Of a stretch of DNA of 32,000 bases, positions 4,562 through 31,986 are shown piece by piece. The DNA is taken from positions 30,001 to 62,000 of the forward strand of contig PRDJ01000039.1 of assembly GCA_003345555.1 (NCBI GenBank), given 5' to 3'. The notes under the pieces were generated by a model that saw nothing but the letters and a program-made list of their open reading frames with translations, had not been told where the DNA came from and ran no database searches. A program made the position numbers and the translations under genes. The stretch comes from Candidatus Thorarchaeota archaeon (GTDB taxonomy: Archaea; Asgardarchaeota; Thorarchaeia; Thorarchaeales; Thorarchaeaceae). The stretch's first letter is position 1, and each line of letters starts with the position of its first letter.

Positions 4562-4578
4562 AGTTCCATAGGGTACTC

Positions 4579-4811: not shown

Positions 4812-4834
4812 TCAGACAAATAACAACTACACTA

Positions 4835-6097: not shown

Positions 6098-6115
6098 AGT
6101 CAACCGTCCTGAGGT

Positions 6116-6123
6116 CTTTATAG
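6116..6123 (-). promoter_or_regulatory. TATA box for the - strand gdhA (leaderless-type)
   Basis: CTATAAAG on the minus strand, centred ~23 nt upstream of ATG 6097. Confidence 0.6.
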
Positions 6124-6408: not shown

Positions 6409-7020
6409 CTATCTTCTTATGACTTCGAGGAGTTCTGCCAGCCGCGCCTTTACGTCGGTCTCCACAGTTCTCAACTCAGCGAGTTGCCGGATTTGGGACA
6501 TGCGGGCGGATCGGTAGTCAGCTTCCGATATCTTGCCGGTTCTTCGCTGAGCTTCAATCTTGTCCATCTGAGCAGCTATCTCGTTGCGCCTGTTGATAAC
6601 GAGTTCGAAGCCGTGCTTCAGTGACATCCATTCAATCATGGCATTACTTCGTTCTTCTTCCATGTGCTCGCGTTTTACTCTCTCTGCTTCCCTTTCTTTG
6701 AGCTTCTTGTTTGCGGTCCTGATCTGCTGCTGAAGCTCATACAATCTGGCTTCAACTTCTCTCTTCACTTCGATTATCTGTGTTGAAAGCTGCCATTTCT
6801 CCTTATACTGCTGAATATGCTCCTGCTCGGTTATCTCTCTCCTCGCGAGCTTCTCATCGAGTTTCGTGAGATCCATCTGCACTTGCTCGAGCTTTGCCTT
6901 GACTTCCTCGTATGACGCACGAAGGGCAGTCCACTCAACACTGAACTGGGTCAGAACCTCTTTCGGGTCTAGCTGTAGGTAGTCTTCGCCGCCCCCTTGG
7001 GGTCTTTGGCCATGACTCAT
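6409..7020 (-). CDS. Coiled-coil protein with an internal 101-aa duplication and (G)xI(S/T)ExxY-like motifs (203 aa)
   Basis: All-helical, E/K/R/Q/L-rich; EW..L...[YF]E.V and V.ARL.EL recur at an offset of 101 aa. Confidence 0.8.
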   Translation of the reverse strand: MSHGQRPQGGGEDYLQLDPKEVLTQFSVEWTALRASYEEVKAKLEQVQMDLTKLDEKLARREITEQEHIQQYKEKWQLSTQIIEVKREVEARLYELQQQIRTANKKLKEREAERVKREHMEEERSNAMIEWMSLKHGFELVINRRNEIAAQMDKIEAQRRTGKISEADYRSARMSQIRQLAELRTVETDVKARLAELLEVIRR

Positions 7021-7151
7021 CAGCTACATCCGTCCTTGTCTATCAACATAGTTGTCCTACAATGCCTTCACCAATTGGACCGACTTAAGCTTTTTCCGAA
7101 GAAAGTGATGCAGAATGGTATTCGCTAGAGGGAAACACGACACCATTTCAC

Positions 7152-7163
7152 CGAAAACTATAA
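7152..7163 (+). promoter_or_regulatory. BRE/TATA box for ilvE
   Basis: CGAAAA-CTATAA ~40 nt upstream of ATG 7202. Confidence 0.55.
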
Positions 7164-7201
7164 CGTGAGGGCCAGCAGGACTTTGGTCGTCGTGAAGGCA
7201 C

Positions 7202-8266
7202 ATGAATCTGAAGGTAGAACTTGTCCCGCCCGTAAGGAGGAAGCCAAAGCCCAAAGATCCTCTCAAGCTTCCTTTTGGATCAACCTTCACAGATCATATG
7301 TTCACAATGCGTTATCGGAATTCAGAATGGTCAGACCCTCAGATTGGACCCTACCAACCGCTGTCGCTCGACCCGGCTGCAATGTGCCTACACTATGGGC
7401 AAGGCATATTCGAAGGGATGAAGGCATATCGCAGAGCAGGGAAGGTCTATCTATTTCGCCCCCGGGACAACATCATGCGCTTGAACGATTCAGCCAAGAG
7501 AATGGTCATGCCAGAAGTTGACGTTGATTTTGTGCTTGGGTGCCTGAAAGAGCTGGTGAAAACCGAAAGGGACTGGATTCCCGACCTGCCCGGCACATCG
7601 TTATACATCAGACCGACGATGATTGCAGTTGAGCCTAAACTCGGCGTTAGAGCATCTCTCGAGTATTTGTTCTACATAATAGTAGGACCCGTTGGTCCGT
7701 ATTTTCCCGAAGGCTTTAACCCGCTGAAAATCATGGTTTCAGACAAGTATGTTAGGGCTGTGCGAGGAGGAGTAGGGTTTTCAAAGACAATGGGCAACTA
7801 CGCCGCCAGTCTCTTGGGGGGCAAAGAGGCATCAGATGCAGGTTGTTCCCAAGTACTGTGGCTGGATGCTATTGAACGTAAGTACGTCGAAGAGACAAGC
7901 ACCATGAATGTGTTTGTCAAGTTTGACAAGGAGCTGGCCACGCCGCCTCTGGATGGGACGATACTGCCTGGCATAACGAGACATTCTGTGATTCGAATAG
8001 CGAAGGACTGGAATCTAACTGTGAACGAACGTCGTGTTTCCATTGACGAGATTGCCGACGGAACGAAGTCAGGAAAGGTCAAGGAATTGTTCGGCGCCGG
8101 TACTGCGGCCACTATAGCTCCCATTGGAGAGCTTTTGTACCAAGGGAAATCATACGTTGTGTCCGGTGGCAAGACTGGTGACCTGACCCGCAGGCTATAT
8201 GACGAACTCACTGCCCTACAGTGCGGCGAAGGAAAGGACAAATATGGCTGGGTTGTGAGCGTCTGA
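7202..8266 (+). CDS. ilvE: Branched-chain amino acid aminotransferase (PLP fold IV, 354 aa)
   Basis: LHYGQGIFEGMKAY, LYIRP, SKTMGNY (PLP Lys), EETSTMN, GTILPGITR, GAGTAA. Confidence 0.96.
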   Translation: MNLKVELVPPVRRKPKPKDPLKLPFGSTFTDHMFTMRYRNSEWSDPQIGPYQPLSLDPAAMCLHYGQGIFEGMKAYRRAGKVYLFRPRDNIMRLNDSAKRMVMPEVDVDFVLGCLKELVKTERDWIPDLPGTSLYIRPTMIAVEPKLGVRASLEYLFYIIVGPVGPYFPEGFNPLKIMVSDKYVRAVRGGVGFSKTMGNYAASLLGGKEASDAGCSQVLWLDAIERKYVEETSTMNVFVKFDKELATPPLDGTILPGITRHSVIRIAKDWNLTVNERRVSIDEIADGTKSGKVKELFGAGTAATIAPIGELLYQGKSYVVSGGKTGDLTRRLYDELTALQCGEGKDKYGWVVSV

Positions 8267-8327
8267 TTCGTCTCCTGATGCATATCTATATCCGTTGTCC
8301 ATGGCTTGAACTTCGAATCATAGTGAG

Positions 8328-8843
8328 GTGTTAGACCTGCCTGCACAACTGACTGTCGATTACACCAAGTGCACTGGATGTAGAATCTGCGAGCTAGCTT
8401 GCAGTGCGAAGAAGGAGGGCCTCTTCAACCCCGCTCTTGCCCGTCTCAAGATAGTCCGTTACGACGACTTAGGGATGGACATTCCCAATGTGTGTGGCCC
8501 CTGTGATGAGGCTCCTTGTGTTGATATTTGTCCCGTCTATGCGATGCGGCGCGACCCCCTCTCAAGAATGACGTATCTGGATGAGGACAAGTGTATCCTC
8601 TGCAAGTCCTGTGCCGGGGTATGTGTCAACGGTGTGATTAAGCTGGACACCTCACGAATGAGAATTATAAAGTGTGACCACTGTGGAGGCGATCCTGAGT
8701 GCGCCAAGGCCTGTCCGACAGGTGCCATACAATATGGCTCCATTTCTCAATCGACCATCAGGGGTCGGCATGGTAAGATGATACACTACCTCAAGGAGAT
8801 AGAGCGGACTGCGTTAGCAGAACAAACCGATGGGGAGAAGTAA
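8328..8843 (+). CDS. Multi-[4Fe-4S] ferredoxin-like protein (DmsB/NrfC-like), AOR partner subunit (171 aa)
   Basis: Four Cys groups: CTGCRICELAC, CGPCDEAPCVDIC, CILCKSCAGVC, CDHCGGDPECAKAC; overlaps the aor start by 14 nt. Confidence 0.92.
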   Translation: MLDLPAQLTVDYTKCTGCRICELACSAKKEGLFNPALARLKIVRYDDLGMDIPNVCGPCDEAPCVDICPVYAMRRDPLSRMTYLDEDKCILCKSCAGVCVNGVIKLDTSRMRIIKCDHCGGDPECAKACPTGAIQYGSISQSTIRGRHGKMIHYLKEIERTALAEQTDGEK

Positions 8844-10746
8844 CGTGCAAGTCGGAGGATATGCTGGGAAGATCCTGAGGGTAAACTTGACCGATAGCAG
8901 TTTTCATGTGGAGCCCTTGCCGTCAGAATGGGTCCGCGAATATGTAGGGGGAGATGGCTTCGCGGCAAGGATGCTCTTCTCGGAATTGAAGCCGAGAATA
9001 GACCCACTTGGCGAAGACAACAAGCTGATAATCGCCACAGGCCCGGTCACTGGCACGTTGTGGCCCATGAGCGGTCGGACTGTATTTGTATCGAAGGCGC
9101 CTCTGACAGGGATATGGGGAGAGAGTCATGTCGGCGGCTTTCTCGGACCTGAACTCAAGTATGCGGGATACGACCTTCTGGTTGTGGAGGGTAGGTCCGA
9201 TGAGCCCGTTTACATTTCAATCGAGGACTCGGACCTCGAGCTGATGAAAGCAGCCGAGTTATGGGGTCTGAAGACAAATGAGGCTACAGCCGCCATCAAA
9301 GGAAGGCATTCAGATCCAGACACCCAAGTGGCTGCCATCGGGCCGGCTGGGGAACGCCTTGTGAGATTCGCATCGGTAATAGTGAACAACGCACGGGCGG
9401 CCGGAAGGACTGGCATGGGCGCAGTCCTGGGCTCGAAGAAGGTGAAAGCCATCGCAGTAAGAGGGCATAAGGCACTCGAGGTCAGTGATCACGATGAATT
9501 CGTTAGACTTGCGAAGGCCGCACATAAGCGAGTTCGGGAGAACGGTCAAGCCAGAGAGATGCACAAGTGGGGCACCTGGATTCTGACTTCAGTTAAGCAG
9601 ACGATTGGGGAACTGCCCACATACAACCATCGTACTGGTGTGTTCGACGGCTGGGAGAAACTCAGCGGCGAATACATACGACCAAGGTACACAATTTCAG
9701 ATAGGGCTTGTTTCGGCTGCAGTCTAGGCTGCAAGAAGGTCAACTACGTTCGCGAGGGACCGTATGCCGGGACGTTTGGGGAAGGGCCTGAATATGAAGG
9801 TCTGATGTCATTTGGTAGCCTGTTAGGTATCGCAGACTTTCCGACCGCTTTGAAAGCAAATCAATTATGCAACGGACTCGGTCTTGACATGATCTCCACA
9901 GGAGCCACAATCGCGTTCGCAATCGAGGCGTTTGAGAATGGCGCTATCGATGAAAGCATCGCGGATGGGATGAAACTGGAATGGGGCAACAGTGAGCAGG
10001 CTCTGCGACTGCTTGAGATGATAGCCAAGAAGGAGGGCATTGGCAAGCTGTTGGCAGAAGGAAGCAGAGCGGCGGCCAAGAGCATCGGTCATGGAAGCGA
10101 CAAGTACGCAATCCACGTTAAGGGGCTCGAGATGTCAGGCCAAGACGGTCGAACTCACCGGAGCATAGGCCTGTCTCATGCCACTGCGGCCCGCGGGGCC
10201 GACCACCTTCGGAGTCTCGTGACCGTCGATCAGCTTGGATATCAGGAAGTGGCTGCCAAGAGATGGGGTCGCGACAAGCTGCCGGAGATAGTTGATCCCT
10301 ACACAGAGAAGTACAAGGCTGCTGCTGTCGTAGAGACTGAGAATGTGTACTGCATCAGGGACTCGATGATTGTCTGTTGGTATTCGGTGTCATGGCCTCC
10401 AATCTTCTGGCTTGATGATTTTGCGCAAGTGCTGCCAGTTGTGACGGGGGTCGATTCACTCGGGTCTACAGATGAGTTGCACAAGATTGCTGAGCGTCAA
10501 GTAACGCTGAAGCGGCTGTTCAATGCCCGAGAAGGCATTGACAGGAAGGACGATCGATTGCCCACCAGATTCACAGAAGAACCGATGCCCGAAGGTCCCG
10601 GGAGAGGACAGAGAGTGAATCTTGAGCCCATGCTGAACGACTACTACAAGCTGCGCGGATGGAACCTGAAGAACGGACTCCCCACAGACGAGACCCTGCA
10701 AAGGCTATCACTTGAGTGGACTCGCACTGGCGTTCGACGGGAGTAG
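8830..10746 (+). CDS. aor: Tungsten-type aldehyde:ferredoxin oxidoreductase family protein (638 aa)
   Basis: GYAGKILRVNLT, SKAPLTG, ESHVGG, GRTGMGAVLGSKKVKAI, CFGCSLGC, GPEYE, CNGLGLDMIS, RGADHL, FNAREG, YYKLRGW. Confidence 0.94.
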   Translation: MGRSNVQVGGYAGKILRVNLTDSSFHVEPLPSEWVREYVGGDGFAARMLFSELKPRIDPLGEDNKLIIATGPVTGTLWPMSGRTVFVSKAPLTGIWGESHVGGFLGPELKYAGYDLLVVEGRSDEPVYISIEDSDLELMKAAELWGLKTNEATAAIKGRHSDPDTQVAAIGPAGERLVRFASVIVNNARAAGRTGMGAVLGSKKVKAIAVRGHKALEVSDHDEFVRLAKAAHKRVRENGQAREMHKWGTWILTSVKQTIGELPTYNHRTGVFDGWEKLSGEYIRPRYTISDRACFGCSLGCKKVNYVREGPYAGTFGEGPEYEGLMSFGSLLGIADFPTALKANQLCNGLGLDMISTGATIAFAIEAFENGAIDESIADGMKLEWGNSEQALRLLEMIAKKEGIGKLLAEGSRAAAKSIGHGSDKYAIHVKGLEMSGQDGRTHRSIGLSHATAARGADHLRSLVTVDQLGYQEVAAKRWGRDKLPEIVDPYTEKYKAAAVVETENVYCIRDSMIVCWYSVSWPPIFWLDDFAQVLPVVTGVDSLGSTDELHKIAERQVTLKRLFNAREGIDRKDDRLPTRFTEEPMPEGPGRGQRVNLEPMLNDYYKLRGWNLKNGLPTDETLQRLSLEWTRTGVRRE

Positions 10747-14747: not shown

Positions 14748-17345
14748 GTGAGTCGAACGGGGAAGCCAAAGGCTGTGAGTGGAAGTACTATCGAGGCTAT
14801 TCGAATGGCGTCCGCATCGGTTCTGGGTTCCACGACCGGACATGGCTATCCAATCGGTGATGCGGTCGGTGTGGGCAGCATGATGGAGGCCAACTCTGAA
14901 GCTGTTGCAGGAAATGTGGCACCACTGATTCTCTCGGTAAGCACACCTTTGAAGGCCTCTGAAGAGCTTGAACTTCTGTCTATGGAGTGGGACCTCGAAA
15001 GGACGCCGGGACCCGAGATACTGCCTGAACAGCTCGTTGTTGCTGGGGGGTATGCCCGGGGTGTTAGTTCACATGTTTCCATGCTAACTTGGGAAAAGGG
15101 CATTGCGGATCCCTTCAATATCGAAGAACGAGTCGAGCTAATCTCAAAGAAGCTTGCTGACCTAGAAGCGGCAACATCGGCAAGCGGGCTCGGGGTTGAA
15201 AACGAAGGTCTAGCCGTCCTCCGTAAGTTCTCGGGCAGATTGAATCGGACTCTGTTCCTGGATATGTTAGATCGTCAGTTTCAGGGGTCTTGGAGTACGC
15301 TCAGGATCAAGCCTGAGGATGTCGATGTAGAACTTGTGATTAGGCAGAGCTATCGGAAGGATTTCACGACTATGCCTCCCGGTGTGAACATCTCCGAACG
15401 CTCAAGTCCTGAATTCTTGCTTCCAGATGCTGATGATGCTGCGCTAACGGAGCACTTCAAACACCGAATCCTGAGCCCAAGCGCAGTAAGAGCGCTGTCC
15501 GTTCAAGTGCCCGAAATCGGAAGGGCGATTCTCAAGGAAATGAACAGATATGCTTACAGCGGCGAGGAGGCTGATATAGCTCGAGCGCTTACGGCGGCGC
15601 TCGTCCGGTTCTTGGGCCGGACCGATATGCGATTTGCCGAACTGGACAGCATAGCGAAGGAAGCTGTCGATTTCACAAGCACTGCAAAGAACGCGATTAG
15701 GATCCTTGGAGATGCCGTAGAGCAGCATGTTTCCTCTGGTACGAGTCTTCGTCTAGCCGAGCACAAAGAGCGTCTTGATACTGCAGTTGAATCCTTAATC
15801 GTTAAGTTACCCAGCCCCACTCGCGATGTAGTGACTTGGTTCCTGCATGAAATGACCTCTGCCATGATGAAGTCTGCCGGAGGTGACCTGCCGGGTGAGG
15901 TCGAGTTCAAGGCTTGGCAACTCAAGAGCGCGACGGGATATTTCCTCACCTACGCTAGGAAAGTCAGCGACTACTTTGCTGAGCAGCTCTATCGTTTCCT
16001 CATCGTTTCATTCGCACGGGCAGGCATCATGAATTCGCTTCACAGTCTTCATCAGGAAATGCTTGAGAAGGGTCTGAGCCCCACAGATCTGGTATTGTTT
16101 AATATGCTCTATGATGAGCTTCTGTCAAAGTTCAAGTCGGCTCTTGGCCGACGGGCGTGCGAAGGAACGACAGAGCGCAACCCAGGCCAGCTCATGGTAG
16201 CAATAGTCCAAGAAATCGTCGATGAATTCTCACGGGATAATCCGCGGAACATGGCTCAGTTTAGGAACATGGTTCAGGTCGCACGTTCCGAGATAGAGGC
16301 AAAACACAAGGTCGAGGAGCGAGATGGCGTACAGGGTCTCGACCGACTAGGAGAAGCACTGTTGGTCCGACTCTCTGACCTTGAGACTCTCGTCACACAA
16401 ACGCTTCAGGATATTGCAGATACCCTTCTCAGCAAGAGATTCATCACTCAACTCGCAGATTTGACGACAACAGAGCAATCCAAATTGTCGGCCGAATTCA
16501 TCAGACTAGTCGAGCTGCAGGAAGGTAAGTCGGCGCAATGGAAGAGCGAAGCAAGAAAGATAGTAAACGATGCTCTGCAAGGAGCCGCCATGGGAAAGGG
16601 CACAGCCCCGAGGTTGCTTACGCTAACACAGAATCTACACGAGGCCATCCGTACCGGCCCTTCCACCGAGTCAGTCCTACAACGCGTGAAATCTGAAGCC
16701 GAGAGGCTCCAAGCAGAATACGAGCGCGAAGTCGAGGAGTGGGAGATAGCGTGTTCTCGGATAGAATCAGAGAACGTGCGTATTCGGGATGAGAATGAAA
16801 CAAGAGAAGGTCTCCTGAAGCAGGCAAGCGCTGACTATGCTCGCGAGACGGCTCAATATGAGCAATTGAAACAGGCATATGACCCGTCTACCGTCCCAGG
16901 TTCTCCTCCTGAACCGCCTGAAACCCTCGAGCAGCGTGTTCTTAGAATCGAGCGGGCGCATCCCGTACAGATGCCCAAGTCGATGCCCACGAAACCAGAG
17001 GCGCCTGAAGAGCTTCTCGTTGCTGATGAGCTGCGCGATACGATTGCCGCCAACATCGAGACAGCAAGCAGAGACGAAAAATCATTACAGAGTATTCTCA
17101 TAGATCGACTGAATTCCATGCGCGATCAACCGGCGAACCAGATGGGGGATCAGGTCGTCAATATCGCTGACGGATTTCATGAGTACCTATTGGAGTCAAC
17201 AATACGAAGCATCGGAAAGCTGCTGCCGCGTGCTTCACGGGTCTATCTTAAATCGCCTGAAGAACCCGACCTGATTTATCTCGTGAGCTACGAATACAAG
17301 AAGGACGAGATGATGGTTCAAATCGGCAGCAATTTCCTGAGGTGA
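14748..17345 (+). CDS. Large hypothetical protein (865 aa): N-terminal alpha/beta domain, long helical region, C-terminal coiled coil and Pro-rich segments
   Basis: 2.6-kb ORF; AGGAGG RBS (14735-14740) 7 nt before GTG; no catalytic motif recognised. Confidence 0.85.
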   Translation: MSRTGKPKAVSGSTIEAIRMASASVLGSTTGHGYPIGDAVGVGSMMEANSEAVAGNVAPLILSVSTPLKASEELELLSMEWDLERTPGPEILPEQLVVAGGYARGVSSHVSMLTWEKGIADPFNIEERVELISKKLADLEAATSASGLGVENEGLAVLRKFSGRLNRTLFLDMLDRQFQGSWSTLRIKPEDVDVELVIRQSYRKDFTTMPPGVNISERSSPEFLLPDADDAALTEHFKHRILSPSAVRALSVQVPEIGRAILKEMNRYAYSGEEADIARALTAALVRFLGRTDMRFAELDSIAKEAVDFTSTAKNAIRILGDAVEQHVSSGTSLRLAEHKERLDTAVESLIVKLPSPTRDVVTWFLHEMTSAMMKSAGGDLPGEVEFKAWQLKSATGYFLTYARKVSDYFAEQLYRFLIVSFARAGIMNSLHSLHQEMLEKGLSPTDLVLFNMLYDELLSKFKSALGRRACEGTTERNPGQLMVAIVQEIVDEFSRDNPRNMAQFRNMVQVARSEIEAKHKVEERDGVQGLDRLGEALLVRLSDLETLVTQTLQDIADTLLSKRFITQLADLTTTEQSKLSAEFIRLVELQEGKSAQWKSEARKIVNDALQGAAMGKGTAPRLLTLTQNLHEAIRTGPSTESVLQRVKSEAERLQAEYEREVEEWEIACSRIESENVRIRDENETREGLLKQASADYARETAQYEQLKQAYDPSTVPGSPPEPPETLEQRVLRIERAHPVQMPKSMPTKPEAPEELLVADELRDTIAANIETASRDEKSLQSILIDRLNSMRDQPANQMGDQVVNIADGFHEYLLESTIRSIGKLLPRASRVYLKSPEEPDLIYLVSYEYKKDEMMVQIGSNFLR

Positions 17346-17349
17346 TTCA

Positions 17350-19794
17350 ATGTCAAGCTCTTGGATACTCAGAACTCGTCAGATGAGTGAAGCTGGAAAG
17401 GAAATCCTTCTGAGAGAAGCGCTCGCTTCTCATATGAGGAACACACGCGATCGACAGTTTGTCGCAGAGCTCCTGAAACAGAGATTGCCTCTGGAAGACA
17501 TTGTTTGCCTCTTTGCAGCTTATTACCTCACGAGCTATCAAGACGTGAGGCTGAGGGGACATGAATCCTTTGAGAACGTTCCCGGCGAACAGAAGGATCG
17601 GGTAGCGGCTGAGTCGCGGAGACTTCTGGAACTGGAGATACGCGGGCTCTTGGGTAACAAACAGAAAGAAGAGATGGACGTTGCAAGACTCATCAGCGAA
17701 TTCATAGTTGAATTCTGTGATGAAGTCGTGAGACCTGACTCGTCAAACCCTCAGGCAGGGATTGAAGTCACTAAGCTGCTGCAATCGTATGTCAAGAGAA
17801 TTCCTAATGACTACTCGCCAAACCATCATATCGATTTCATCAATGGTGTTACAGGCTGGGGGTCTATATGGAGAGACGAGATCTATGAGAAGGCATCGGG
17901 GCTCAAAGAGTCATCCCTGACGCTCAGAGAGGAGCTGCTTAAGGAGCGTGAGCCGGAGATACCCGAAACAGCTGTTCTTCTTAGGTGCATTACACGTTTG
18001 CTGGGACATACTACGTACCTTCAGGGCCCGTTGAGCCCCGGTGATATCGATAATAGCAAGTGGGAGGAGATTGCCCGAGCAGTAACCCAGAATATCGCCA
18101 AGAGCGGACAGGGGCTGCAAGCGCTGAGGAAAGCCCATCAGATTCGTCTAGAAGCTCTTGATGCCATCGAGAGGGAATTTCAAACCCCGACTTCCCTTGA
18201 GGAATTCGAGAATCGAGTCGGCGATTTTCTGGCGAAGCGAATTGCCGAGGAGATTGCAGCTAATCCAAATGACGCGTACTTTCTCTTGGGGCACTTGCTT
18301 GGCCTCAACCCAAATGATGTCAAAGCGGCACTCAGACCGAAAGGAATCGCCAGCCCAACTGACCTTGTGTCTGGGTTCGGCGCACTGACCGCGGGAGCAC
18401 CTGAGGATGTTGGGCGCACCCCAGCGGAAAAGGGTGATTTGGAGGACATGGACCGCTCGCTGAAAACATTGGACAAGATCGAGCAGACCCTTGAGAAGTC
18501 TGTGAAGGGTATGCTTCGTTCCCGCGGTCTCAAGTCTTCCGAACTCGACAAGATATCCCTCCAACTTCTCACCAAAGAGCGAAGCAGCCTCATAGGAATC
18601 GAGATTGTTGTATTGGAACAGTTGAAGAAGATGGTACGTGTTCCTCCTCCGCAAGAGATTGCCCGATTAATCAAACTCCGCGAGGACGTACAGAAAGGTG
18701 CCCTGACTTCTTCGGGTGTCTCCTCAGGACCACAAGTCAGCCGCCAGCTGAAGCAAGATGAGACAATCCGTTCTCTTAAGCTGGATATAGTCTGGCACCT
18801 GATGATAGGCCTGTTTACGAACCTGACTCGTGTAGTAGAAATGTACGTGCGTTCCAAGCAGGACATTCTTCGTATCAAAGCGCTTCTCAAAAGCATCTAC
18901 GAGAAGACCGAGAGTGAATTGCAGGTCTACCGAGAAGAGATACTTTTCGACTTTGCCATCGTACGAATCCAAGAGATCAAGTGTATTTGCCCTGAGTTGG
19001 ACACCCTTTCCCTTTGGGCTTGGTTCCATGCGCGGCTGTCAGGCGAGGACATGGATTCTGCTAAGTCTGAGTTCACTGGTTCGTCAAGTTCTGTGTTTGA
19101 GGGCGTGGTCAAAGCCCCTCTCAGAATAGCTGGTCTTGAATTTGATAACTACGCTATAGCTTTCGACGTGATGAACAGATTCCTAGTGAGGGAGAAAAGG
19201 GCAAAGCAGGCTAAGGAAGAGGTTGCGGTAGAGACGAAGCTTGAAGAACAGAAAATGATAGAAACCAAACGGAAGGAGCTCGACGTCCTCACATTTATCT
19301 ATACTAAGGCTCACACCGTATTCAAGGCCACGGGCAGGACCGGTCCCAAAGGCTTGGAATGGACATCAACTGATAGTTCCAAATGTGCGAATCTCCTGAG
19401 TCTGTACTTGAGAACCAATCGGGGCCGAGCCATATGCACGGCATGTGGGTCAATGGCTAAGGAGGGAACGTGTCCTAATCATGGTTCAGAGCTTGTAAAT
19501 GCGAGTTCCGACTTGGACAACTTGGCGGTGTTCATAATGCAGGGAATCTCCGAAATCAAGACTGGCCTTATCGGGCCGTCTGCTGAATCCATGTCGTGGG
19601 AGAAAGCGAAGGCCGTCGTGCAGAAAGAAACTAGCTTGCTCAAGCAGAAAGGCAAGCTTGACAAGAAGGCGAACTTGAAGCTTCTCTTGCCGGGTGAGAT
19701 AGACTATGTGGTCGGCCCAGCAATGGCGGCCGTCGTGGCGCAGTACTTCAATGAGTCACTTCAGTATGCCGCTCGTCGGGCACGCTTGGCATGA
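17350..19794 (+). CDS. Large hypothetical helical protein (814 aa) with a C-terminal CxxC...CxxH zinc-binding motif
   Basis: 2.4-kb ORF; GAGGTGA RBS (17339-17345) overlaps the upstream stop; CTACGSMAKEGTCPNHG. Confidence 0.85.
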   Translation: MSSSWILRTRQMSEAGKEILLREALASHMRNTRDRQFVAELLKQRLPLEDIVCLFAAYYLTSYQDVRLRGHESFENVPGEQKDRVAAESRRLLELEIRGLLGNKQKEEMDVARLISEFIVEFCDEVVRPDSSNPQAGIEVTKLLQSYVKRIPNDYSPNHHIDFINGVTGWGSIWRDEIYEKASGLKESSLTLREELLKEREPEIPETAVLLRCITRLLGHTTYLQGPLSPGDIDNSKWEEIARAVTQNIAKSGQGLQALRKAHQIRLEALDAIEREFQTPTSLEEFENRVGDFLAKRIAEEIAANPNDAYFLLGHLLGLNPNDVKAALRPKGIASPTDLVSGFGALTAGAPEDVGRTPAEKGDLEDMDRSLKTLDKIEQTLEKSVKGMLRSRGLKSSELDKISLQLLTKERSSLIGIEIVVLEQLKKMVRVPPPQEIARLIKLREDVQKGALTSSGVSSGPQVSRQLKQDETIRSLKLDIVWHLMIGLFTNLTRVVEMYVRSKQDILRIKALLKSIYEKTESELQVYREEILFDFAIVRIQEIKCICPELDTLSLWAWFHARLSGEDMDSAKSEFTGSSSSVFEGVVKAPLRIAGLEFDNYAIAFDVMNRFLVREKRAKQAKEEVAVETKLEEQKMIETKRKELDVLTFIYTKAHTVFKATGRTGPKGLEWTSTDSSKCANLLSLYLRTNRGRAICTACGSMAKEGTCPNHGSELVNASSDLDNLAVFIMQGISEIKTGLIGPSAESMSWEKAKAVVQKETSLLKQKGKLDKKANLKLLLPGEIDYVVGPAMAAVVAQYFNESLQYAARRARLA

Positions 19795-20345: not shown

Positions 20346-21749
20346 ATGCCTAAGAAGTTCGTGCCAAGAGGGATAATGCCAGCCCTCATAACGCCATTCG
20401 CGAAAGATGGCGAGATAATCGAACAGAGCTTTCGCGAGATTATCGATTACACAATTAGCAAAGGAGCCGCCGGAGTCGTACCCGCTGGCACAACGGGCGA
20501 GTTCGTTTACATGAATATGGACGAGCGCAAGAAGCTTCTGAGTCTGACAACGGAATGCGTGAATGGTCGCGTTCCGATTATTGCAGGCACAGGTCAGAGC
20601 AGCACTGAAGCAGCTACTGAGCTGACGAAGTACGCGGCAGATATTGGATGCGATGCAGCTTTGATCGTTTCTCCCTTCTATTTGAAACCGACTGACAAGG
20701 GCTACTACGAGCACTATGCCACTATCGCAAGAAAGAGTGACCTGCCTGTCATAATGTATAATATTCCTCAGATGGGCGGTATGGGTGTCCTCCCTGTTAG
20801 CGTTGTGGAAGACCTAGCCGAACTGGACAATATCGTAGGCATCAAGGACAGCAGTGGTAACATAACCTACATGCTGGAACTACTGCAGAAGCTAAAAGGC
20901 CGCATTTCTGTGATAAATGGCAATGACGAGATCTTCTTCTCTGCAGTGACTGCGGGTGTGAACGCCGCAATCATGGCCTCAGCGAACTTGATGCCTCATC
21001 TTTGGAATGATCTTTTGAAGAAAGTCCGCAAAGGTGACATTGATGGAGCCCTCAAGCTTCAGCTCTCGATGCAGACTCTGACTCGAATTGTGACAAGGTA
21101 TGGAGGTGCTCCGCCAGTCAGGGCAGCACTGAAGATGATGGGAATCGATTCGGGTAAAGCACGAATGCCACTTAACACAGGTGGGACGTTGACTCCCGAA
21201 CTTAAGGAGGAAATAAGAGTCGAGCTGGAGAAGCTAGGGCTGATTGGGGGTTCAAAGCATGTTGGTCCAGCGAAAGAAGTCGACATTAATGGTGTCCTAC
21301 TAGAGGCCGGATTGAGTGCCGAACAGCAACAAGCCCTCAAGGTCGGACGCGGATCGAGTCAAGCTTGTACCGCCAGCGTCGTTTGTGGATCCAAGACCGG
21401 TCCCCTGGGATCAGCGTTTGTCCGATTGCTGACGACTCCGCGAATTGGACGCGAGGCACTATCAGTGATTCTTGAACCGAACTTGGCTGTCAGACCTTCC
21501 AGCCTAATGTTGCCGGGCAGAAAGATCAGCTCAATGCGTCAGGCGTCAGTGTTCTACGGTCCAGTGCAGTCCGGCGCTGCTAGAGCTGTTGCAGGTCACC
21601 TAGCTGCTGGCAAGATATCTCCTGACGCGGTTCAAAACAATGTCATGGTGATGGTGATCGATGTGGACTTGGATACAGTCGACAGAAGAGCAGTCACTGC
21701 CGCTACGGAGGTAGCGGTTTCCGCGGCTCTCAGTCAGATTTGGAGGTGA
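20346..21749 (+). CDS. DapA/NAL-family class I aldolase (Schiff-base Lys intact) fused to a degenerate Fae domain (467 aa)
   Basis: GIMPALITPF, AGTTGEF, SPFY, MYNIP, VGIKDSSG (AAG 20844-20846); C-terminal EPNLAVRP and RQASVFYGPVQSGAARAV match Fae, but there is no His in the segment matching AHIDL. Confidence 0.9.
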   Translation: MPKKFVPRGIMPALITPFAKDGEIIEQSFREIIDYTISKGAAGVVPAGTTGEFVYMNMDERKKLLSLTTECVNGRVPIIAGTGQSSTEAATELTKYAADIGCDAALIVSPFYLKPTDKGYYEHYATIARKSDLPVIMYNIPQMGGMGVLPVSVVEDLAELDNIVGIKDSSGNITYMLELLQKLKGRISVINGNDEIFFSAVTAGVNAAIMASANLMPHLWNDLLKKVRKGDIDGALKLQLSMQTLTRIVTRYGGAPPVRAALKMMGIDSGKARMPLNTGGTLTPELKEEIRVELEKLGLIGGSKHVGPAKEVDINGVLLEAGLSAEQQQALKVGRGSSQACTASVVCGSKTGPLGSAFVRLLTTPRIGREALSVILEPNLAVRPSSLMLPGRKISSMRQASVFYGPVQSGAARAVAGHLAAGKISPDAVQNNVMVMVIDVDLDTVDRRAVTAATEVAVSAALSQIWR

Positions 21750-21755
21750 GGAAAA

Positions 21756-23234
21756 ACGCCTGAAGGATCTTGGCGATTCAAAGGTGTGTACGCCGGACTA
21801 GTCACACCGTTTGGTGAGAACGGCGTCAATGAGGCACAATACCGCAATCTGATTGAGCATGTTATCAAGGCAGGGGCAAACGGCATTGTTCCCTGCGCAT
21901 CACTCGGCGAATTCACAAGTATGTCATTTGAGGAGAAAGCTGAAGCTATTCGAGTCGCATGCGACGCTGCGAAGGGACGGGTGCCGGTGCTTGCGGGTGC
22001 ATGCGCGGCTTACACTGCCGACGTCGTCAAGCTGTATCTAAAGGCTGCCGAGTACGGAGCTTCGGGGGCGTTGGTAGTCTCTCCGTATTTCATGAAGCCT
22101 TCCACAAAGGAAATCTATGAACACTATGAGAAGGTTGCGAACTCAGCTGGTCTCCCAGTATTCCTGTATAATTGTCCACAGTTCACTGGCGTGAACCTCG
22201 ACTGGTGGCTGATCGAAGGTCTGCGCGAGATCAAGGGCATTATTGGGCTCAGCGATGCGAGCGGCAACTTGGTCAATGTCTCGCAGATACTCGCTCGTCG
22301 GCCAGAGGACTTTCAAGTTGTTGTTGGCCATGATGAAGTCGTTCTGCCGAGTATGGCAGCAGGCTGCGATGGAGCTATCCTAGCAACTGCAAATATCTTC
22401 CCCGACAGATATGTAAGAATGGCGATTGCTCTAAGTCAAGGCGATCTCAAAGAGGCTAGACTCATTCAGCGTAGCGTTCAGAGAACCGCGAGAATCGTTG
22501 TCAACAAGGGCGGTCCTCTCGCTGTCAAGGCGGCCCTGAATATGATGGGCATCCCCGTCGGTTCTGCTCGAATGCCTCTCCTACAGGGCGATGTTCTGGG
22601 CTATGATGACTTAGATGAACTCAGGACACAGCTGGAAGACCTCCAGCTGATGCCTAGAGGGTCAGTCACCTACAGGGCGCATGGTCGATCCGTTGTTACG
22701 GATGCATATCCGAAGGCTGTGGGAATGAGCAAGGACATCATCGATGACCTCACCCTCCTTCATGGAGAAGCTTTGTGTGGGGAGGGATTGGAAGTTGCTC
22801 ATGTCGATCTGGTTGTGGGACTCAAGGATGGGCCTATGCAGGCTGCCTTGACCAACGCAGGTATCAAGACCGATGGCTTCCATATGTCCAACATCATCAA
22901 GGACCTTCGACCTACGACCGTATTTGCGCCCACGGTGACAATCACCGACGAACATCACAGCAGGCTCGTGTTCGAGTTCGCTCAGAAGGCCGTTGCTGAC
23001 GCTGTGACAAGGACAATCACAGACCGGATGATTCCCGAGGAGCTTGTGCCAGACCTAGTGATTGCTGTGAAAGTGTTCGTCCATCCCAATGCCAACAACC
23101 CAAGACGGGTACACATGAACAATTTCCGAGCCACGAGGTTTGCGATAAGGCGAGCTCTGGAAGGTCGACAATCTGTAGAGGAGGTAGTTGCCCGAAAGGA
23201 CTCAGCTCGTCATCCATATGGCTACAATCCATGA
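21756..23234 (+). CDS. fae: DapA-like pseudo-aldolase (Schiff-base Lys to Ser) fused to an intact-looking Fae domain (492 aa from ACG 21756; 482 aa from GTG 21786)
   Basis: GVYAGLVTPF, ASLGEF, LYNCP, IIGLSDASG (AGC 22251-22253 at the Lys position); Fae signature GEALCGEGLEVAHVDL, AQKAVADAV, VFVHP, ATRFAIRRAL, C-terminal HPY. Confidence 0.9.
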   Translation, partial: TPEGSWRFKGVYAGLVTPFGENGVNEAQYRNLIEHVIKAGANGIVPCASLGEFTSMSFEEKAEAIRVACDAAKGRVPVLAGACAAYTADVVKLYLKAAEYGASGALVVSPYFMKPSTKEIYEHYEKVANSAGLPVFLYNCPQFTGVNLDWWLIEGLREIKGIIGLSDASGNLVNVSQILARRPEDFQVVVGHDEVVLPSMAAGCDGAILATANIFPDRYVRMAIALSQGDLKEARLIQRSVQRTARIVVNKGGPLAVKAALNMMGIPVGSARMPLLQGDVLGYDDLDELRTQLEDLQLMPRGSVTYRAHGRSVVTDAYPKAVGMSKDIIDDLTLLHGEALCGEGLEVAHVDLVVGLKDGPMQAALTNAGIKTDGFHMSNIIKDLRPTTVFAPTVTITDEHHSRLVFEFAQKAVADAVTRTITDRMIPEELVPDLVIAVKVFVHPNANNPRRVHMNNFRATRFAIRRALEGRQSVEEVVARKDSARHPYGYNP

Positions 23235-23331: not shown

Positions 23332-23541
23332 GTGTCGGGACAATACGGTCAGTCGCTAAAGGATCTACTTGAGCGAATGCATATTTCTGACTCAGAGAAG
23401 CTTGTTGCGGAAGGTGAGACCTTAGTGATAGACACGAAAGCAGAACGAATTCTCCTCTCGCGAAAGGATGGCGTTCTGTCAATCAGGTCTCTTCCTTCAC
23501 CGGGATCCGGCAGTATTGCTGGAAAGGGTCACAACACTTAG
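23332..23541 (+). CDS. Possible small hypothetical protein (at least 69 aa)
   Basis: Protein-like composition; TATA-like GATATAAG near 23253-23260; frame open back to 23260 without a canonical start. Confidence 0.35.
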   Translation: MSGQYGQSLKDLLERMHISDSEKLVAEGETLVIDTKAERILLSRKDGVLSIRSLPSPGSGSIAGKGHNT

Positions 23542-29931: not shown

Positions 29932-30576
29932 TCACTTCATGCCAGCTATTTGCCTATCAAGATCCTCAAGCTGCGAATCCAGTTCGGCTTCCTTGGTCTT
30001 GTAGTCCTCTTCTGGAATGTATCCTCTCATGTAGTCAAAGCGCAAGTCAGTCAAGGCAGCCTTCAAACGATCCTTCTGTTGCAGAAGGAAGTCGAGTTGG
30101 TCGCTAGAACCTGCAGGCGCTGCTGGAGCTGGAGCAGGAGCTACCTTTGCTGCGGGTGCAGCAGGCGCTGACTTCGCTGGGGCCGGAGCTAGTGCCGATT
30201 TCGCGGGAGCGGGTGCTGGCGCAGGCTTTGGCGTAGGTGCTGGAGCTGCTTTTGGAGTTGCAGCAGCCTTCGGAGGAGCTGTCGGTGCAGCCCTCGGTGG
30301 CGCAGTCGGGGCAGCAGCCTCTGCCGACAATGAGCTTGGTTGTACTGCCTCCATAGTCTCCATGTTACGCCTAAGAGTGTCAATCTGGTCAGCAATCTGA
30401 GTAAAGCTATCATTGATGGTCTGATTAATCGCGGTCTTCATCCTTGCCAAGTTCTCTGCCAGCTGATCGGCAAGCTTCTTTGTCTCCGCGACCTTGTTAG
30501 CAAAGCTTTCTATCGCCCTGAGCTTCTGGTTCAGCTCTTCCATTTGTCTTTGAATAGCGCTAAAATCGAAGGCCAT
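29932..30576 (-). CDS. Hypothetical protein: N-terminal coiled coil, Ala/Pro-rich linker, C-terminal helical module with GYIPEEDY motif (214 aa)
   Basis: AGGTGA RBS 6 nt upstream of the ATG; three-part architecture visible in the translation. Confidence 0.85.
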   Translation of the reverse strand: MAFDFSAIQRQMEELNQKLRAIESFANKVAETKKLADQLAENLARMKTAINQTINDSFTQIADQIDTLRRNMETMEAVQPSSLSAEAAAPTAPPRAAPTAPPKAAATPKAAPAPTPKPAPAPAPAKSALAPAPAKSAPAAPAAKVAPAPAPAAPAGSSDQLDFLLQQKDRLKAALTDLRFDYMRGYIPEEDYKTKEAELDSQLEDLDRQIAGMK

Positions 30577-30673: not shown

Positions 30674-31531
30674 CTACGCAGGCACCGGTTTGGCTTCACC
30701 CTTTCCTTCAAGGATGGCTTTCCGGATGATTTGAATGAGGCGGTCTCTATAGGAGATGTCTATCGCGACGAGCTCGTAAGTGGCGATTCCGAGAATCTGG
30801 CCCACTCTCTCAGGAGTCAGAGCAGTGGGCAGGTCTTGCTTGTTGGCGATGCCAATTACCTTGGCTTCAGGAACCTCCTCTTTGACCAGAGACACCAACT
30901 TCTTGCTACGCAAAACGTTCTCAAGGGTACTATCGGTCACAATGATGACAACTTGGGCATTCGCTATCATCTTGGCCCAGAGGATACTAAACCGCGATTG
31001 ACCCGCAAGGTCCCAGAGTACTATGTTCGCATTTTGGACTTCGTCCGGGAGCTTCTTTATCGATACACCGATTGTAGGATCATGTACCAGTGGAAGTGTC
31101 TCTCCCCTGAGCAGATGCAGTGTGGTGGTCTTGCCAACGCCTGCGTATCCAAGAATCGCCACCTTCACCATTGTCACTGCTATCTCGTCGACCTTTGCAT
31201 CAAGACCTTCCAAGGGGAGGTTCGCTTCTGCAAGGGTTGCGAAGTCCTTTATGAAGGCATCAACTAGCTGCGTCATCCGCTCCTCTATCTGAGCTGTGTC
31301 GTCGGCCTTGTCGGCCACAAACATGAATACGAAGTCGCGTCGAGCAGCATAGAATATCCTTGTCCCTGAGAAACCCATGTACTCTGTCTTTCCCTCCAGG
31401 TCAACTGAGGAAATGAAATGAGCGAAATTCACTAGGAACTCAACCAGTCCCTCTCCTGATTCGCTCTTGGCGTATTCTTTGGAATATATGACATTGCTCT
31501 GTTGTCCAAGTATGTATAGGCTTCTAATCAT
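30674..31531 (-). CDS. Longin-domain / small Ras-superfamily (Arf/Rab-like) GTPase fusion (285 aa)
   Basis: G1 GYAGVGKT, G2 PTIG, G3 WDLAGQ, G4 NKQD; N-terminal ~115 aa with longin-like pattern (IRSLYIL...VIYSKEY...RIFYAARRDFVFMFVAD); ATG overlaps the upstream TGA (ATGA). Confidence 0.92.
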   Translation of the reverse strand: MIRSLYILGQQSNVIYSKEYAKSESGEGLVEFLVNFAHFISSVDLEGKTEYMGFSGTRIFYAARRDFVFMFVADKADDTAQIEERMTQLVDAFIKDFATLAEANLPLEGLDAKVDEIAVTMVKVAILGYAGVGKTTTLHLLRGETLPLVHDPTIGVSIKKLPDEVQNANIVLWDLAGQSRFSILWAKMIANAQVVIIVTDSTLENVLRSKKLVSLVKEEVPEAKVIGIANKQDLPTALTPERVGQILGIATYELVAIDISYRDRLIQIIRKAILEGKGEAKPVPA

Positions 31532-31986
31532 TGCTCGCCACTCCACTTCTCGGCAAGTATCTCAAGATGTCTTCTGGCAATCTCAGGGGTTATCTCGTCG
31601 TTAGACAGCTTATCTGCTATCAGCGGCAGAACAAACTCTGGGATAAATGATTCCATGATTGGGTTGGTCACCAAAGCCCAGATTCCTTCTCCGATTTGTG
31701 CCGCAACATTTTCAGACTCTAAGCTGAATAGCGCGTTTTGAACGATTTCTTCCTGAAGCAGCGTTCTGTTCGATATCTCTCTCACTGAAAGCGGCTCATC
31801 TCGCAGAGAAGTTAGGACCTTGTATTCGATCTTCTTGGAAAGCACTCTCGCGATCTTTTCCCTGTCTTCGACCAGCGGTGAATTGGGGTCGTCGCTGGGT
31901 ATCGTGGGGTTGTATCCTCGGCTCGGAGGTGGCGGTGCGAAGAACTCAGCAACTCGCTGTTGGTACTGAGCGGCGAGCCCGGGCAT
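31528..31986 (-). CDS. Winged-helix-containing hypothetical protein with a PPPP motif (at least 152 aa; may extend beyond the window)
   Basis: YKVLTSLRDEPLSVREISNRTLLQEEIVQNALFSLESEN...GIWAL is a wHTH pattern; no in-frame stop between 31987 and the window end. Confidence 0.8.
   Translation of the reverse strand: MPGLAAQYQQRVAEFFAPPPPSRGYNPTIPSDDPNSPLVEDREKIARVLSKKIEYKVLTSLRDEPLSVREISNRTLLQEEIVQNALFSLESENVAAQIGEGIWALVTNPIMESFIPEFVLPLIADKLSNDEITPEIARRHLEILAEKWSGEQ

Follow-up and report, generated by a model that had tools for sequence, protein, structure and literature searches.

The window, a 32,000-nucleotide stretch of DNA from a Candidatus Thorarchaeota archaeon, carries two adjacent forward-strand genes, each encoding a DHDPS-like aldolase domain fused to a Fae domain (Table 1). 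A profile search bears out the initial annotation of both genes as DHDPS-Fae fusions: Pfam DHDPS (PF00701) matches copy 1 and copy 2 with E-values of 1.4e-77 and 4.5e-67, and Pfam Fae (PF08714) with E-values of 2e-23 and 1e-34 (bit scores 83 and 120, cut-off 27). The upstream copy 1 and the downstream copy 2, referred to here as the alpha and beta subunits, are 31% identical in a full-length comparison. Modelled with AF2, copy 1 reaches a pLDDT of 91. A literature search for DapA/DHDPS-Fae fusions or Fae residue data returned nothing relevant, and the only form mentioned in the Asgard archaea papers it found is Fae-Hps.

Table 1. Coordinates of the gene pair and its principal features within the window
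Feature	Nucleotides	Residues	Strand	Remarks
Copy 1, upstream alpha subunit	20346..21749		+	467 aa; ORF list, Pfam matches
Copy 1 DHDPS-like class I aldolase domain	20367-21179	8-278	+	
Copy 1 substrate loop YNIPQMGGMGVLP	20757..20795	138-150	+	DapA Arg138 position is Met143
Copy 1 Schiff-base Lys167 codon AAG	20844..20846	167	+	GIKDSSG
Copy 1 truncated Fae-like domain, without His	21348-21734	335-463	+	
Shine-Dalgarno-like GGAGGTGA	21742..21749		+	Overlaps copy 1 stop TGA 21747-21749; 6 nt before ACG 21756
Copy 2, downstream beta subunit	21756..23234		+	492 codons from ACG 21756 (orthologous start)
Copy 2 ORF from GTG 21786	21786-23234		+	482 aa
Copy 2 DHDPS-like domain, active site dismantled	21795-22586		+	
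Copy 2 Ser156 codon AGC, replacing Schiff-base Lys	22251..22253	156	+	GLSDASG
Copy 2 Fae domain with His and Asp	22764-23219		+	
Copy 2 His339-Val-Asp341 (CAT-GTT-GAT-type)	22800..22808	339-341	+	Fae catalytic-face motif AHVDL; CAT 22800-22802 in EVAHVDL

The two copies share one reading frame and are separated by a single TGA. Read-through of this codon into one 950-aa protein was rejected, because one-frame genes occur at only about 8 of about 70 family loci, below the one-in-three chance expectation, and because an ordinary ATG follows the stop by 7 nt in close relatives. The open reading frame of copy 2 from GTG 21786 is present, but the orthologous start, which yields 491-492 aa and lies 7 nt past the copy 1 stop, is at 21756. 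At this position the window has ACG and its three nearest relatives have ATG; at 21786, ten codons further on, the window has GTG and the same relatives GTA or GTT. The 0.9-kb spacer that follows the pair has no match in Rfam, and no gene recurs beside the pair in the neighbourhoods compared in other lineages.

The tandem pair is found in 80 of the 86 genomes of the window's family, spanning 16 genera, and copy 1 lies directly upstream of copy 2 on the same strand wherever both share a contig. Beyond the family, pairs are present in at least three further archaeal lineages: a soda-lake archaeon (L069), L074, and Korarchaeota/Thermoproteota-labelled MAGs (L075). This distribution marks the tandem pair as ancient. 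In a tree, the fusion family is monophyletic with respect to DapA (100/99), and all downstream subunits form one clade with the single Loki-type gene (95/99). Many Loki-type genomes have a single fusion with both the aldolase Lys and the Fae His and without an alpha partner, so the beta type is presumably able to work alone. The soda-lake pair has lost the Schiff-base Lys in both subunits, and Tyr133 and GTTGE in one or both, while its beta subunit keeps the Fae His; aldolase chemistry thus appears not to be indispensable to the pair everywhere.

Aldolase domains and genome context

Copy 1 retains the residues first reported for it: Lys167, Tyr138 and the GTTGE motif, which supplies the proton-relay threonines T49/T50, are invariant in 120/120 orthologues. 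With K167, Y138 and T49/T50 in place (the superfamily's Schiff-base Lys, Tyr133 and Thr44/Thr45), copy 1 qualifies on its residues as a catalytic member of the DHDPS/NAL class I aldolase superfamily. Copy 2 in the window's sublineage has, as originally described, Ser in place of the Lys and ASLGE in place of GTTGE (TT to SL), together with about seven further motif changes. Because only Tyr128 of the Lys/Tyr/GTTGE set is kept alongside Ser156 and ASLGE, copy 2 qualifies, by the same reading of residues, only as a member of the DHDPS/NAL fold.

Among 110 copy 2 orthologues, the Lys is lost in only four, those of the window and of its three closest relatives, and by this comparison the loss is recent; the Schiff-base Lys and GTTGE are kept in 106/110 orthologues, and two genomes of the window's own genus retain the Lys. 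The initial annotation had made its reading depend on a reciprocal pattern, Lys without His in copy 1 and His without Lys in copy 2, being conserved among homologues. These counts, the same-genus genomes and the soda-lake lineage without Lys in either subunit all contradict it as a family trait. The sole lineage-specific new Lys in the copy 2 barrel, D150K, lies six residues upstream of Ser156 at the opposite strand end, and the compensating Lys that the initial annotation had named as evidence against its own reading is unlikely to be found there. Exactly the genomes with a Lys-less copy 2, and only that sublineage, have a remodelled copy 1 substrate loop with a one-residue insertion (YNIPQC-TLG to YNIPQMGG.., plus GHDE to GNDE). 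The window's sublineage has its only Schiff-base site in alpha and its only Fae His in beta.

Both copies exceed the TIGR00674 (DapA) cut-off of 206.15 bits by a narrow margin (222.3 bits for copy 1, 221.9 for copy 2), and DapA also provides their best sequence and PDB matches and their database label. The Arg138 of DapA (E. coli numbering, YNxPxRT) holds aspartate semialdehyde by its carboxylate. This position is Met143 in copy 1, Phe133 in copy 2, and Cys or Val in orthologues; the DHDPS structures 3pud and 3pb2, aligned to copy 1, have Arg opposite the Met. Neither DapB (PF05173) nor Asd (PF02774) was found in the 93%-complete genome, with controls positive in 11/14 and 14/14 reference genomes, respectively. 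Since Arg138 is missing and both of these partner enzymes were not found, neither copy, as far as sequence and gene content indicate, is DapA; the pair differs from DapA also in the extra Fae domain and in the Lys-less copy 2. Each of two database searches gave about 690 homologues at E <= 0.001, and many of those listed are named 4-hydroxy-tetrahydrodipicolinate synthase, so that several hundred database proteins carry a DapA label unsupported by sequence and genome context.

A third DHDPS homologue, on contig 12, was considered as the real DapA and rejected, its motifs (GNTGEF, KYAFG) being KdgD-like. No HxlA above the cut-off was found in the genome. PanB was likewise not found in this genome, but its presence in 75/85 genomes of the family led to rejection of the pair as a PanB replacement (a methylene-H4MPT-dependent ketopantoate synthase).

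Complementary Fae domains

Fae speeds up the reaction of formaldehyde with H4MPT to methylene-H4MPT. The stand-alone Fae of Methylorubrum (M.) extorquens (1Y5Y) is a homopentamer with identical interfaces, and its His22, in the AHIDL motif, is a catalytic-face residue at the subunit interface. The copy 2 Fae domain aligns with 1Y5Y end to end (E 2e-22), matches the His and Asp of AHIDL, and scores 132 bits against TIGR03126 (Fae; cut-off 118). The copy 1 alignment covers Fae residues 13-125 (E 2e-9), ends at about 125, has Thr and Ser at the His and Asp positions, and scores 72 bits. His339 and Asp341 are retained in 109/110 copy 2 orthologues, and His occupies the Fae His position in 0/120 copy 1 orthologues, in agreement with the first description of the two domains.

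Retention of Fae motifs was scored against 29 canonical Asgard Fae-Hps sequences. In columns 1-30, beta keeps 14/20 conserved positions and alpha 4/20; in columns 30-60, alpha keeps 8/20 and beta 4/20. What beta, with its 5-residue deletion at RPNLP, retains of Fae is the N-terminal His/Asp face together with the C-terminal tail. Alpha stops short of the last ~35 residues and retains the central EPNL / RQA-FYGPxQ (PNL/FYGPxQ) face, and its approximately 26 nearly invariant positions are exactly the canonical Fae motifs lost in beta. On this alignment evidence, it is within the Fae domains, rather than between the aldolase and Fae parts, that the pair shows its conserved asymmetry. The earlier proposal that a duplicated gene divided its activities thus holds for a conserved division within Fae, but not for aldolase in one copy and Fae in the other. 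Unlike the M. extorquens homopentamer (1Y5Y/1Y60), each subunit of the pair keeps only one face, implying that just one hetero-interface is productive.

Folding of the alpha and beta Fae domains as a complex gave a score of 0.90, against 0.01 for the best of three controls; the 0.90 mark is reached by 58/80 solved complexes and 2/110 mismatched pairs. Contact agreement between runs is at least 89%, with partner pLDDT of at least 91. The modelled interface comprises H326-L330, His339 and Asp341 of beta and residues 350-383 and 405-409 of alpha, and conserved alpha residues are enriched there (14 observed, 7.2 expected, p=0.002). The model supports pairing of the two Fae domains at the His face, although its score may reflect memory of the solved homopentamer interface (1Y5Y) rather than an alpha-beta preference. 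The barrels offer a contrary indication. In Thorarchaeia, the equivalent of the trans-acting Tyr107 is Phe in beta (108/110) and Tyr in alpha (108/120), and a DHDPS tight dimer of alpha with beta would place the complete triad in beta, at the site destroyed in the window; this would count against a heteromer.

The closest known parallel is the bifunctional Fae-Hps found in methanogens and further archaea (NF009833; 5,6,7,8-tetrahydromethanopterin hydro-lyase / 3-hexulose-6-phosphate synthase), likewise an archaeal fusion of Fae to a formaldehyde-handling carbon-carbon lyase in H4MPT metabolism. Its partner is an OMP-decarboxylase-fold Hps, however, whereas that of the pair is a DHDPS-family class I aldolase; Fae is N-terminal in Fae-Hps and C-terminal in the pair, which also has two differentiated subunits. 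Against NF009833, the two copies score 59 and 110 bits (cut-off 274) and match the Fae part only (positions 4-161 of 392). Canonical Fae-Hps, which other Asgard families usually have as their Fae, is absent from the window's family, where the pair supplies the only Fae homologues; both Fae domains in the window's genome belong to it, and the H4MPT enzyme Mch is present. Being the only Fae homologue in Thorarchaeia, the pair is the one candidate there for a link between free formaldehyde and the H4MPT branch of the Wood-Ljungdahl pathway.

A candidate hetero-oligomeric enzyme

The favoured reading, to which a probability of roughly 55% is assigned, is that alpha and beta form one hetero-oligomeric enzyme derived from an old duplication, with a composite Fae site coupled to a Schiff-base aldolase site. 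A DapA-like aldolase::Fae fusion would have been duplicated into upstream alpha and downstream beta subunits, and one alpha and one beta Fae domain would build a single tetrahydromethanopterin/formaldehyde site at their interface. This site would be coupled to a 2-oxo-acid aldolase site producing or consuming formaldehyde, the favoured candidate reaction being pyruvate + methylene-H4MPT <-> 4-hydroxy-2-oxobutanoate + H4MPT. Within the sublineage of the window, beta had its aldolase site dismantled but its fold preserved by purifying selection, and alpha acquired a rebuilt substrate loop. Assembly into one complex, as the initial annotation proposed, looks supported by the conserved tandem order, the complementary Fae motifs, the joint change in one sublineage, and a Fae-Fae fold that passes its controls; the formaldehyde channelling proposed with it is something we infer. 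The pair would be a natural case of an oligomeric active site split between two paralogues, with the fused aldolase site silenced repeatedly and independently. From their sequences, the two genes look like those for the two subunits of one old enzyme linking one-carbon metabolism to a 2-oxo acid.

It is possible, though unlikely, that the essential activity is Fae, which beta would provide against a partner face contributed by alpha, and that the barrels serve chiefly as a scaffold for oligomerisation, their aldolase chemistry being optional or lost. The Lys-less soda-lake pair with its beta Fae His fits such an arrangement, as do the window's lost beta aldolase site next to a Fae motif intact under selection and the lack of any other Fae in the Thorarchaeia family. 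The presence of Lys, Tyr133 and GTTGE in 120/120 alpha and 106/110 beta orthologues is hard to reconcile with it, and the alpha substrate loop in the window's lineage is remodelled, not decayed. We also doubt, rather strongly, that the genes encode two separate enzymes, co-transcribed paralogues that act as homo-oligomers on substrates of their own, and that copy 1 has only a degenerate remnant as its Fae-like tail. The low identity between the copies, the single-gene form in Loki-type genomes and the general knowledge that DHDPS-family enzymes are normally homotetramers would suit this arrangement, but a remnant would hardly hold some 26 near-invariant positions matching the Fae motifs missing from beta. 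Gene order and adjacency are, moreover, kept across phyla, and both genes are altered together within one genus.

Little credence is given to a non-catalytic Fae-like pair that senses H4MPT or methylene-H4MPT and regulates an aldolase unrelated to formaldehyde. Nothing speaks for it directly beyond a 2-oxo-acid aldolase partner that has no established link to a C1 carrier; the catalytic-face His and Asp of 109/110 beta orthologues, the copy 2 score above the curated Fae equivalog cut-off, and the catalytic nature of the parallel Fae-Hps speak against it. That the window's copy 2 is a decaying gene, having lost its start codon and catalytic Lys, is very improbable and largely refuted. The ATG to ACG change at the orthologous start and the dismantled aldolase motifs might suggest decay, yet four independent assemblies preserve the 492-codon frame, the Fae motifs are undamaged, and the window has gained the GTG ten codons downstream. 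The dN/dS of Lys-less copy 2 is about 0.03-0.06 in both domains (dN about 0.09), indicating strong purifying selection; a pseudogene, whose dN/dS signature the initial annotation had named as grounds for abandoning its reading, is rejected by these values.

A more specific version of the hetero-oligomer reading is tentative and rather improbable: the pair might be a natural methylene-H4MPT:pyruvate hydroxymethyl-transferring aldolase whose 4-hydroxy-2-oxobutanoate (HOB) would be converted to homoserine by transamination and passed to threonine synthase, replacing the aspartate pathway in Thorarchaeia. If the aldolase does join a C1 unit to pyruvate, it would connect C1 with amino-acid metabolism in a new way, and in the archaea most closely related to eukaryotes. 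The pair might then serve synthetic C1 assimilation, and the threonine route would be the native counterpart of a segment of the synthetic homoserine cycle. That cycle, which uses pyruvate + formaldehyde HOB aldolase activity, likewise runs from pyruvate and a C1 unit through HOB and homoserine to threonine by way of threonine synthase (PMC8879981). There, however, E. coli aldolases supply the activity as a promiscuous side reaction within an engineered pathway, without H4MPT coupling and with HOB described as non-native (PMC8879981); the archaeal pair as a HOB maker is a proposal only.

The threonine reading draws on gene content. Threonine synthase is present in 86/86 genomes of the window's family and homoserine dehydrogenase in only 3/86, and neither Asd nor canonical ThrB was found in the window's 93%-complete genome. 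An inverse distribution of the fusion and homoserine dehydrogenase is seen among 399 Asgard genomes (odds ratio 0.16, the related genomes not being independent). Both genes occur together in 34 Loki-type genomes. In four families with the fusion (f4, f13, f14 and f28), homoserine dehydrogenase is found in 0/37 genomes, and threonine-synthase-like genes are present in 5/5 genomes sampled from those with the fusion but no homoserine dehydrogenase.

The paired genes and their distribution

Each of the two adjacent genes encodes a DapA-like DHDPS aldolase domain joined to a C-terminal Fae (formaldehyde-activating) domain, as the initial annotation had read them; a Pfam profile search matches both domains in each protein, and the DHDPS match spans about 270 residues in both. 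Copy 1, the upstream subunit, and copy 2, the downstream subunit, are 31% identical over their full length. Their ORFs are separated by 36 nt when copy 2 is counted from its GTG, and they share one frame with a single TGA between them. The codons singled out in that annotation are borne out: AAG encodes Lys167 of copy 1, AGC encodes Ser156 of copy 2, and CAT encodes His339 of copy 2. So is the absence of the Fae His from copy 1 and its retention in copy 2: copy 2 aligns end to end with Methylorubrum extorquens Fae (PDB 1Y5Y), both the His and the Asp of AHIDL included, whereas copy 1 aligns only with Fae residues 13-125 and has Thr and Ser in their place. AlphaFold2 models copy 1 with confidence (pLDDT 91, pTM 0.79) and gives it an ordered C-terminal alpha/beta domain.

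Copy 2 orthologues are 491-492 residues long. In the three nearest relatives (loci L006, L007, and L008), the copy 2 ATG sits 7 nt past the copy 1 stop and is preceded by a GGAGGTGA box. At the orthologous start (21756), the window reads ACG, and it has gained a GTG ten codons further downstream (21786), where the three relatives have GTA or GTT; copy 2 of the window would therefore either initiate at the non-AUG codon ACG or have a start recently shifted ten codons downstream.

Genes of the pair occur in 80 of the 86 genomes and in 16 genera of the window's family, and copy 1 immediately precedes copy 2, in the same orientation, on every contig that has both. When 1.84 billion cluster representatives were searched exhaustively, full-length DHDPS-Fae fusions formed only about fifteen 50%-identity clusters. 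The same two-gene arrangement is found in three further lineages (a soda-lake archaeon, L069; a lineage represented by L074; and MAGs labelled Korarchaeota/Thermoproteota, L075), in each of which the downstream subunit has the Fae His and the upstream subunit has none. By maximum likelihood, the fusion family separates from plain DapA as a monophyletic group (100/99); one clade (95/99) contains all downstream subunits and the single-gene Loki-type form, with the upstream subunits as an unresolved basal grade. One ancient duplication behind the pair fits this tree. Within the Asgard sample, Thorarchaeia have two fusion copies; a single copy with both Lys and His occurs alongside canonical Fae-Hps in many Loki-type and some other families. 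No mention of a DHDPS/DapA-Fae fusion was found in the literature, where Fae in Asgard archaea is discussed only as Fae-Hps. Like Fae-Hps, the pair fuses Fae to a putative formaldehyde-handling lyase; its own feature is the unusual, apparently split-site heteromer design.

Features of the pair, its surroundings, and related loci (window positions unless a locus or contig is named)
Feature	Position	Strand	Remarks
Glu/Leu/Phe/Val dehydrogenase paralogue	397-1623	-	
Glu/Leu/Phe/Val dehydrogenase paralogue	3236-4561	+	
Glu/Leu/Phe/Val dehydrogenase paralogue	4835-6241	-	
Class IV aminotransferase	7202-8266		
Poly-ferredoxin	8328-8843		
Aldehyde:ferredoxin oxidoreductase	8830-10746		
Two large ORFs	14748-19794		865 and 814 aa, 4 nt apart
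Copy 1 ORF	20346-21749	+	467 aa; DHDPS (Pfam, E 1e-77), Fae (Pfam, E 2e-23)
Tyr107-equivalent site, copy 1	20676-20681		aa 111-112
Copy 2 ORF	21786-23234	+	482 aa from GTG; DHDPS (Pfam, E 5e-67), Fae (Pfam, E 1e-34)
Tyr107-equivalent site, copy 2	22086-22091		aa 101-102
Small ORF	23332-23541	+	69 aa
Coiled-coil ORF	29932-30576	-	
Small GTPase, Arf/Roc/Ras type	30674-31546	-	
Threonine synthase	G000:C39:19532-20689 (L076 7527-8714)	+	NF006050, 489 bits; same contig, ~10 kb upstream of window start
Archaeal HAD-IB phosphoserine-phosphatase-like gene	L076 8686-9318	-	weak ThrH (homoserine phosphotransferase) similarity; adjoins threonine synthase
Soda-lake archaeon pair	L069 3544-6449		GCA_003560875.1; same pair on L071; both aldolase domains without Schiff-base Lys

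Complementary Fae domains

Judged by motif comparison with 29 canonical Asgard Fae-Hps sequences, the conserved asymmetry of the pair is inside the Fae domains. Downstream subunits keep 14 of 20 conserved columns of the N-terminal GEAL..G..E(V)AH(V)DL face, against 4 of 20 in upstream subunits, and retain the C-terminal VFVHP...NN..A...RHPF tail; their central Fae segment has been lost, and five residues are deleted at RPNLP. Upstream subunits keep this central segment (EAL.VILEPNL..RP, RQAS.FYGPVQ.GAA; 8/20 versus 4/20 downstream), and their Fae domain ends after about residue 125. Each subunit therefore has the motifs that are missing from its partner. Fae binds H4MPT in a cleft between adjacent subunits of its homopentamer, near His22, and complementary loss would be expected if a site between two neighbouring Fae protomers shrank to a single hetero-interface.

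The two Fae domains (copy 2 residues 296-482 and copy 1 residues 305-467, each with its own family alignment) were folded as a complex, which scores 0.90 (best of three controls, 0.01). Of 80 solved complexes, 58 attain that value, as do 2 of 110 mismatched pairs. Contact agreement between runs is at least 89%, and partner pLDDT is at least 91. The predicted interface is made up of H326-L330, His339, and Asp341 of copy 2 and of residues 350-383 (including EALSVILEPNL) and 405-409 (GPVQ) of copy 1. Nearly invariant copy 1 residues are enriched in it (14 observed versus 7.2 expected, p = 0.002); the enrichment of conserved copy 2 residues is weak (15 versus 11, p = 0.09). For the proposal of the initial annotation that the copies assemble into one complex, this gives a model in which the two Fae domains can be packed against each other as Fae protomers are, conserved faces meeting. 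Because the homopentamer structure is already solved, the score may reflect the predictor's prior exposure to that interface; the model speaks to fit, not to binding.

Loss of the aldolase site

The reciprocal pattern first proposed for the pair (Lys without His in copy 1, His without Lys in copy 2) does not hold as a conserved trait. All 120 aligned orthologues of copy 1 have the Lys, Tyr133, and GTTGE, and none has a His at the Fae His position; among 110 full-length orthologues of copy 2, 109 have the Fae His, 106 the aldolase Lys, and 103-106 GTTGE. The Ser, ASLGE, YNCP, and DAS variants of copy 2 are confined, among these 110, to the window plus the three relatives nearest to it (83-86% identical). 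Within the window's genus, copy 2 lacks the Lys in the window's own genome (G000) and in G333, and GMKDSSG is kept in G332 and G334 (74-75% identical). As the Lys-less form is limited to a few genomes and the Lys is kept within the same genus, the copy 2 aldolase site must have been lost recently, in one lineage only.

Decay of the Lys-less gene is rejected on a dN/dS of 0.03-0.06 among the four Lys-less copy 2 genes, in the barrel and the Fae part alike (Nei-Gojobori; dN about 0.09, with dS saturated and the ratio thus approximate); the pseudogene-like ratio that would have spoken against the early proposal is not seen. These four sequences share 23 unique substitutions, about nine of them in conserved aldolase motifs (G38A, T39S, T40L, T72A, G73C, I130C, K156S, S158A). 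The copy 1 substrate loop, YNIPQC-TLG in 113-116 of 120 orthologues, reads YNIPQMGG(M/I)(G/S), one residue longer, in exactly the genomes with a Lys-less copy 2, and the same genomes have GNDE for GHDE in copy 1. From these alignments, the two copies have changed together in the Lys-less lineage.

In the soda-lake pair, the upstream subunit has Ala for the Schiff-base Lys, GAEGE, and YNPMET; the downstream subunit has Leu for the Lys, His for Tyr133, and TSDVGE, and keeps the Fae His. With the Lys lost both here and in the window's lineage, at least two independent events have silenced the aldolase site. New in these comparisons are a downstream aldolase site whose loss is recent and selected and goes with a co-varying upstream loop, the independent double Lys loss in the soda-lake lineage, and the distribution data of the fusion. 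A RibD_C-type reductase gene lies directly upstream of the L069 pair.

At the equivalent of the trans-acting Tyr107 of DHDPS, upstream subunits of Thorarchaeia have Tyr (108/120) and their downstream partners Phe (108/110). Should the barrels pair as a mixed tight dimer, the downstream site, which is destroyed in the window, would be the one to hold the full catalytic triad; this asymmetry is hard to reconcile with which aldolase site the window lost.

Candidate function and genomic setting

By analogy with Fae-Hps, the simplest reading would be a two-site enzyme, in which a class I (Schiff-base) 2-oxo-acid aldolase would release or consume formaldehyde and a composite Fae site would exchange it with H4MPT. 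Were the first site a pyruvate aldolase, formaldehyde would be the aldol partner and 4-hydroxy-2-oxobutanoate (HOB) the presumed product. Both the soda-lake pair without any Schiff-base Lys and the Tyr107-equivalent asymmetry of Thorarchaeia cut against this simple two-site picture. The window's genome (2.28 Mb, 93% complete) encodes the H4MPT enzyme Mch and serine hydroxymethyltransferase; no Hps above cut-off and no Fae domains beyond copy 1 and copy 2 were found in it.

Both copies just exceed the dapA equivalog cut-off (222 versus 206 bits), and database names follow accordingly. Despite this score, DapA identity is rejected: the DapA Arg138 position holds Met or Phe in the window's copies and Cys or Val in orthologues, and neither DapB nor aspartate-semialdehyde dehydrogenase (Asd) was found in the window's genome. 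The third DHDPS homologue of this genome has KdgD-like motifs. Replacement of PanB by the pair is likewise ruled out, since 75 of the family's 85 genomes carry PanB.

Threonine synthase (ThrC) looks like an orphan in the window's family, where it is present in 86/86 genomes and homoserine dehydrogenase in 3/86; in the window's genome, no homoserine dehydrogenase, Asd, or canonical ThrB scores above cut-off. In a set of 399 Asgard genomes, homoserine dehydrogenase shows an inverse distribution to the fusion (odds ratio 0.16, related genomes not being independent; 0.07 with the two largest families left out and 0.36 for the Loki-type family alone). Four families (f4, f13, f14, and f28) carry the fusion, with homoserine dehydrogenase in 0 of 37 genomes, eleven H4MPT-using or other Asgard families have homoserine dehydrogenase without the fusion, and 34 Loki-type genomes have both. 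Threonine-synthase-like genes occur in all five sampled genomes with the fusion and without homoserine dehydrogenase. The thrC gene is about 30 kb from the pair and shares no operon with it. A route from pyruvate and a C1 unit through HOB and homoserine to threonine fits this distribution and is, on balance, improbable; such a route is known only as a segment of an engineered "homoserine cycle," in which HOB is termed non-native (PMC8879981).

Judged by the source names of its homologues, the window belongs to a Thorarchaeota-type Asgard archaeon. The surrounding genes include an Arf-family GTPase, an aldehyde:ferredoxin oxidoreductase, and three Glu/Leu/Phe/Val-type dehydrogenases; the cluster at 397-10746 is typical of amino-acid fermentation. 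The two large ORFs directly upstream of the pair have no Pfam match and are also present upstream of the pair in relative L006. About 100 nt past copy 2, the 69-aa ORF has a counterpart at the equivalent position in every genus-level relative checked (48-76% identity in L006, L007, L008, L040, L041, and L042) and matches no known family; in other genera, tblastn gave no hit to it downstream of the pair. The small GTPase, an Asgard "eukaryotic signature" protein, has an N-terminal extension of about 120 aa, and the adjoining coiled-coil ORF has a faint CdvA-like match.
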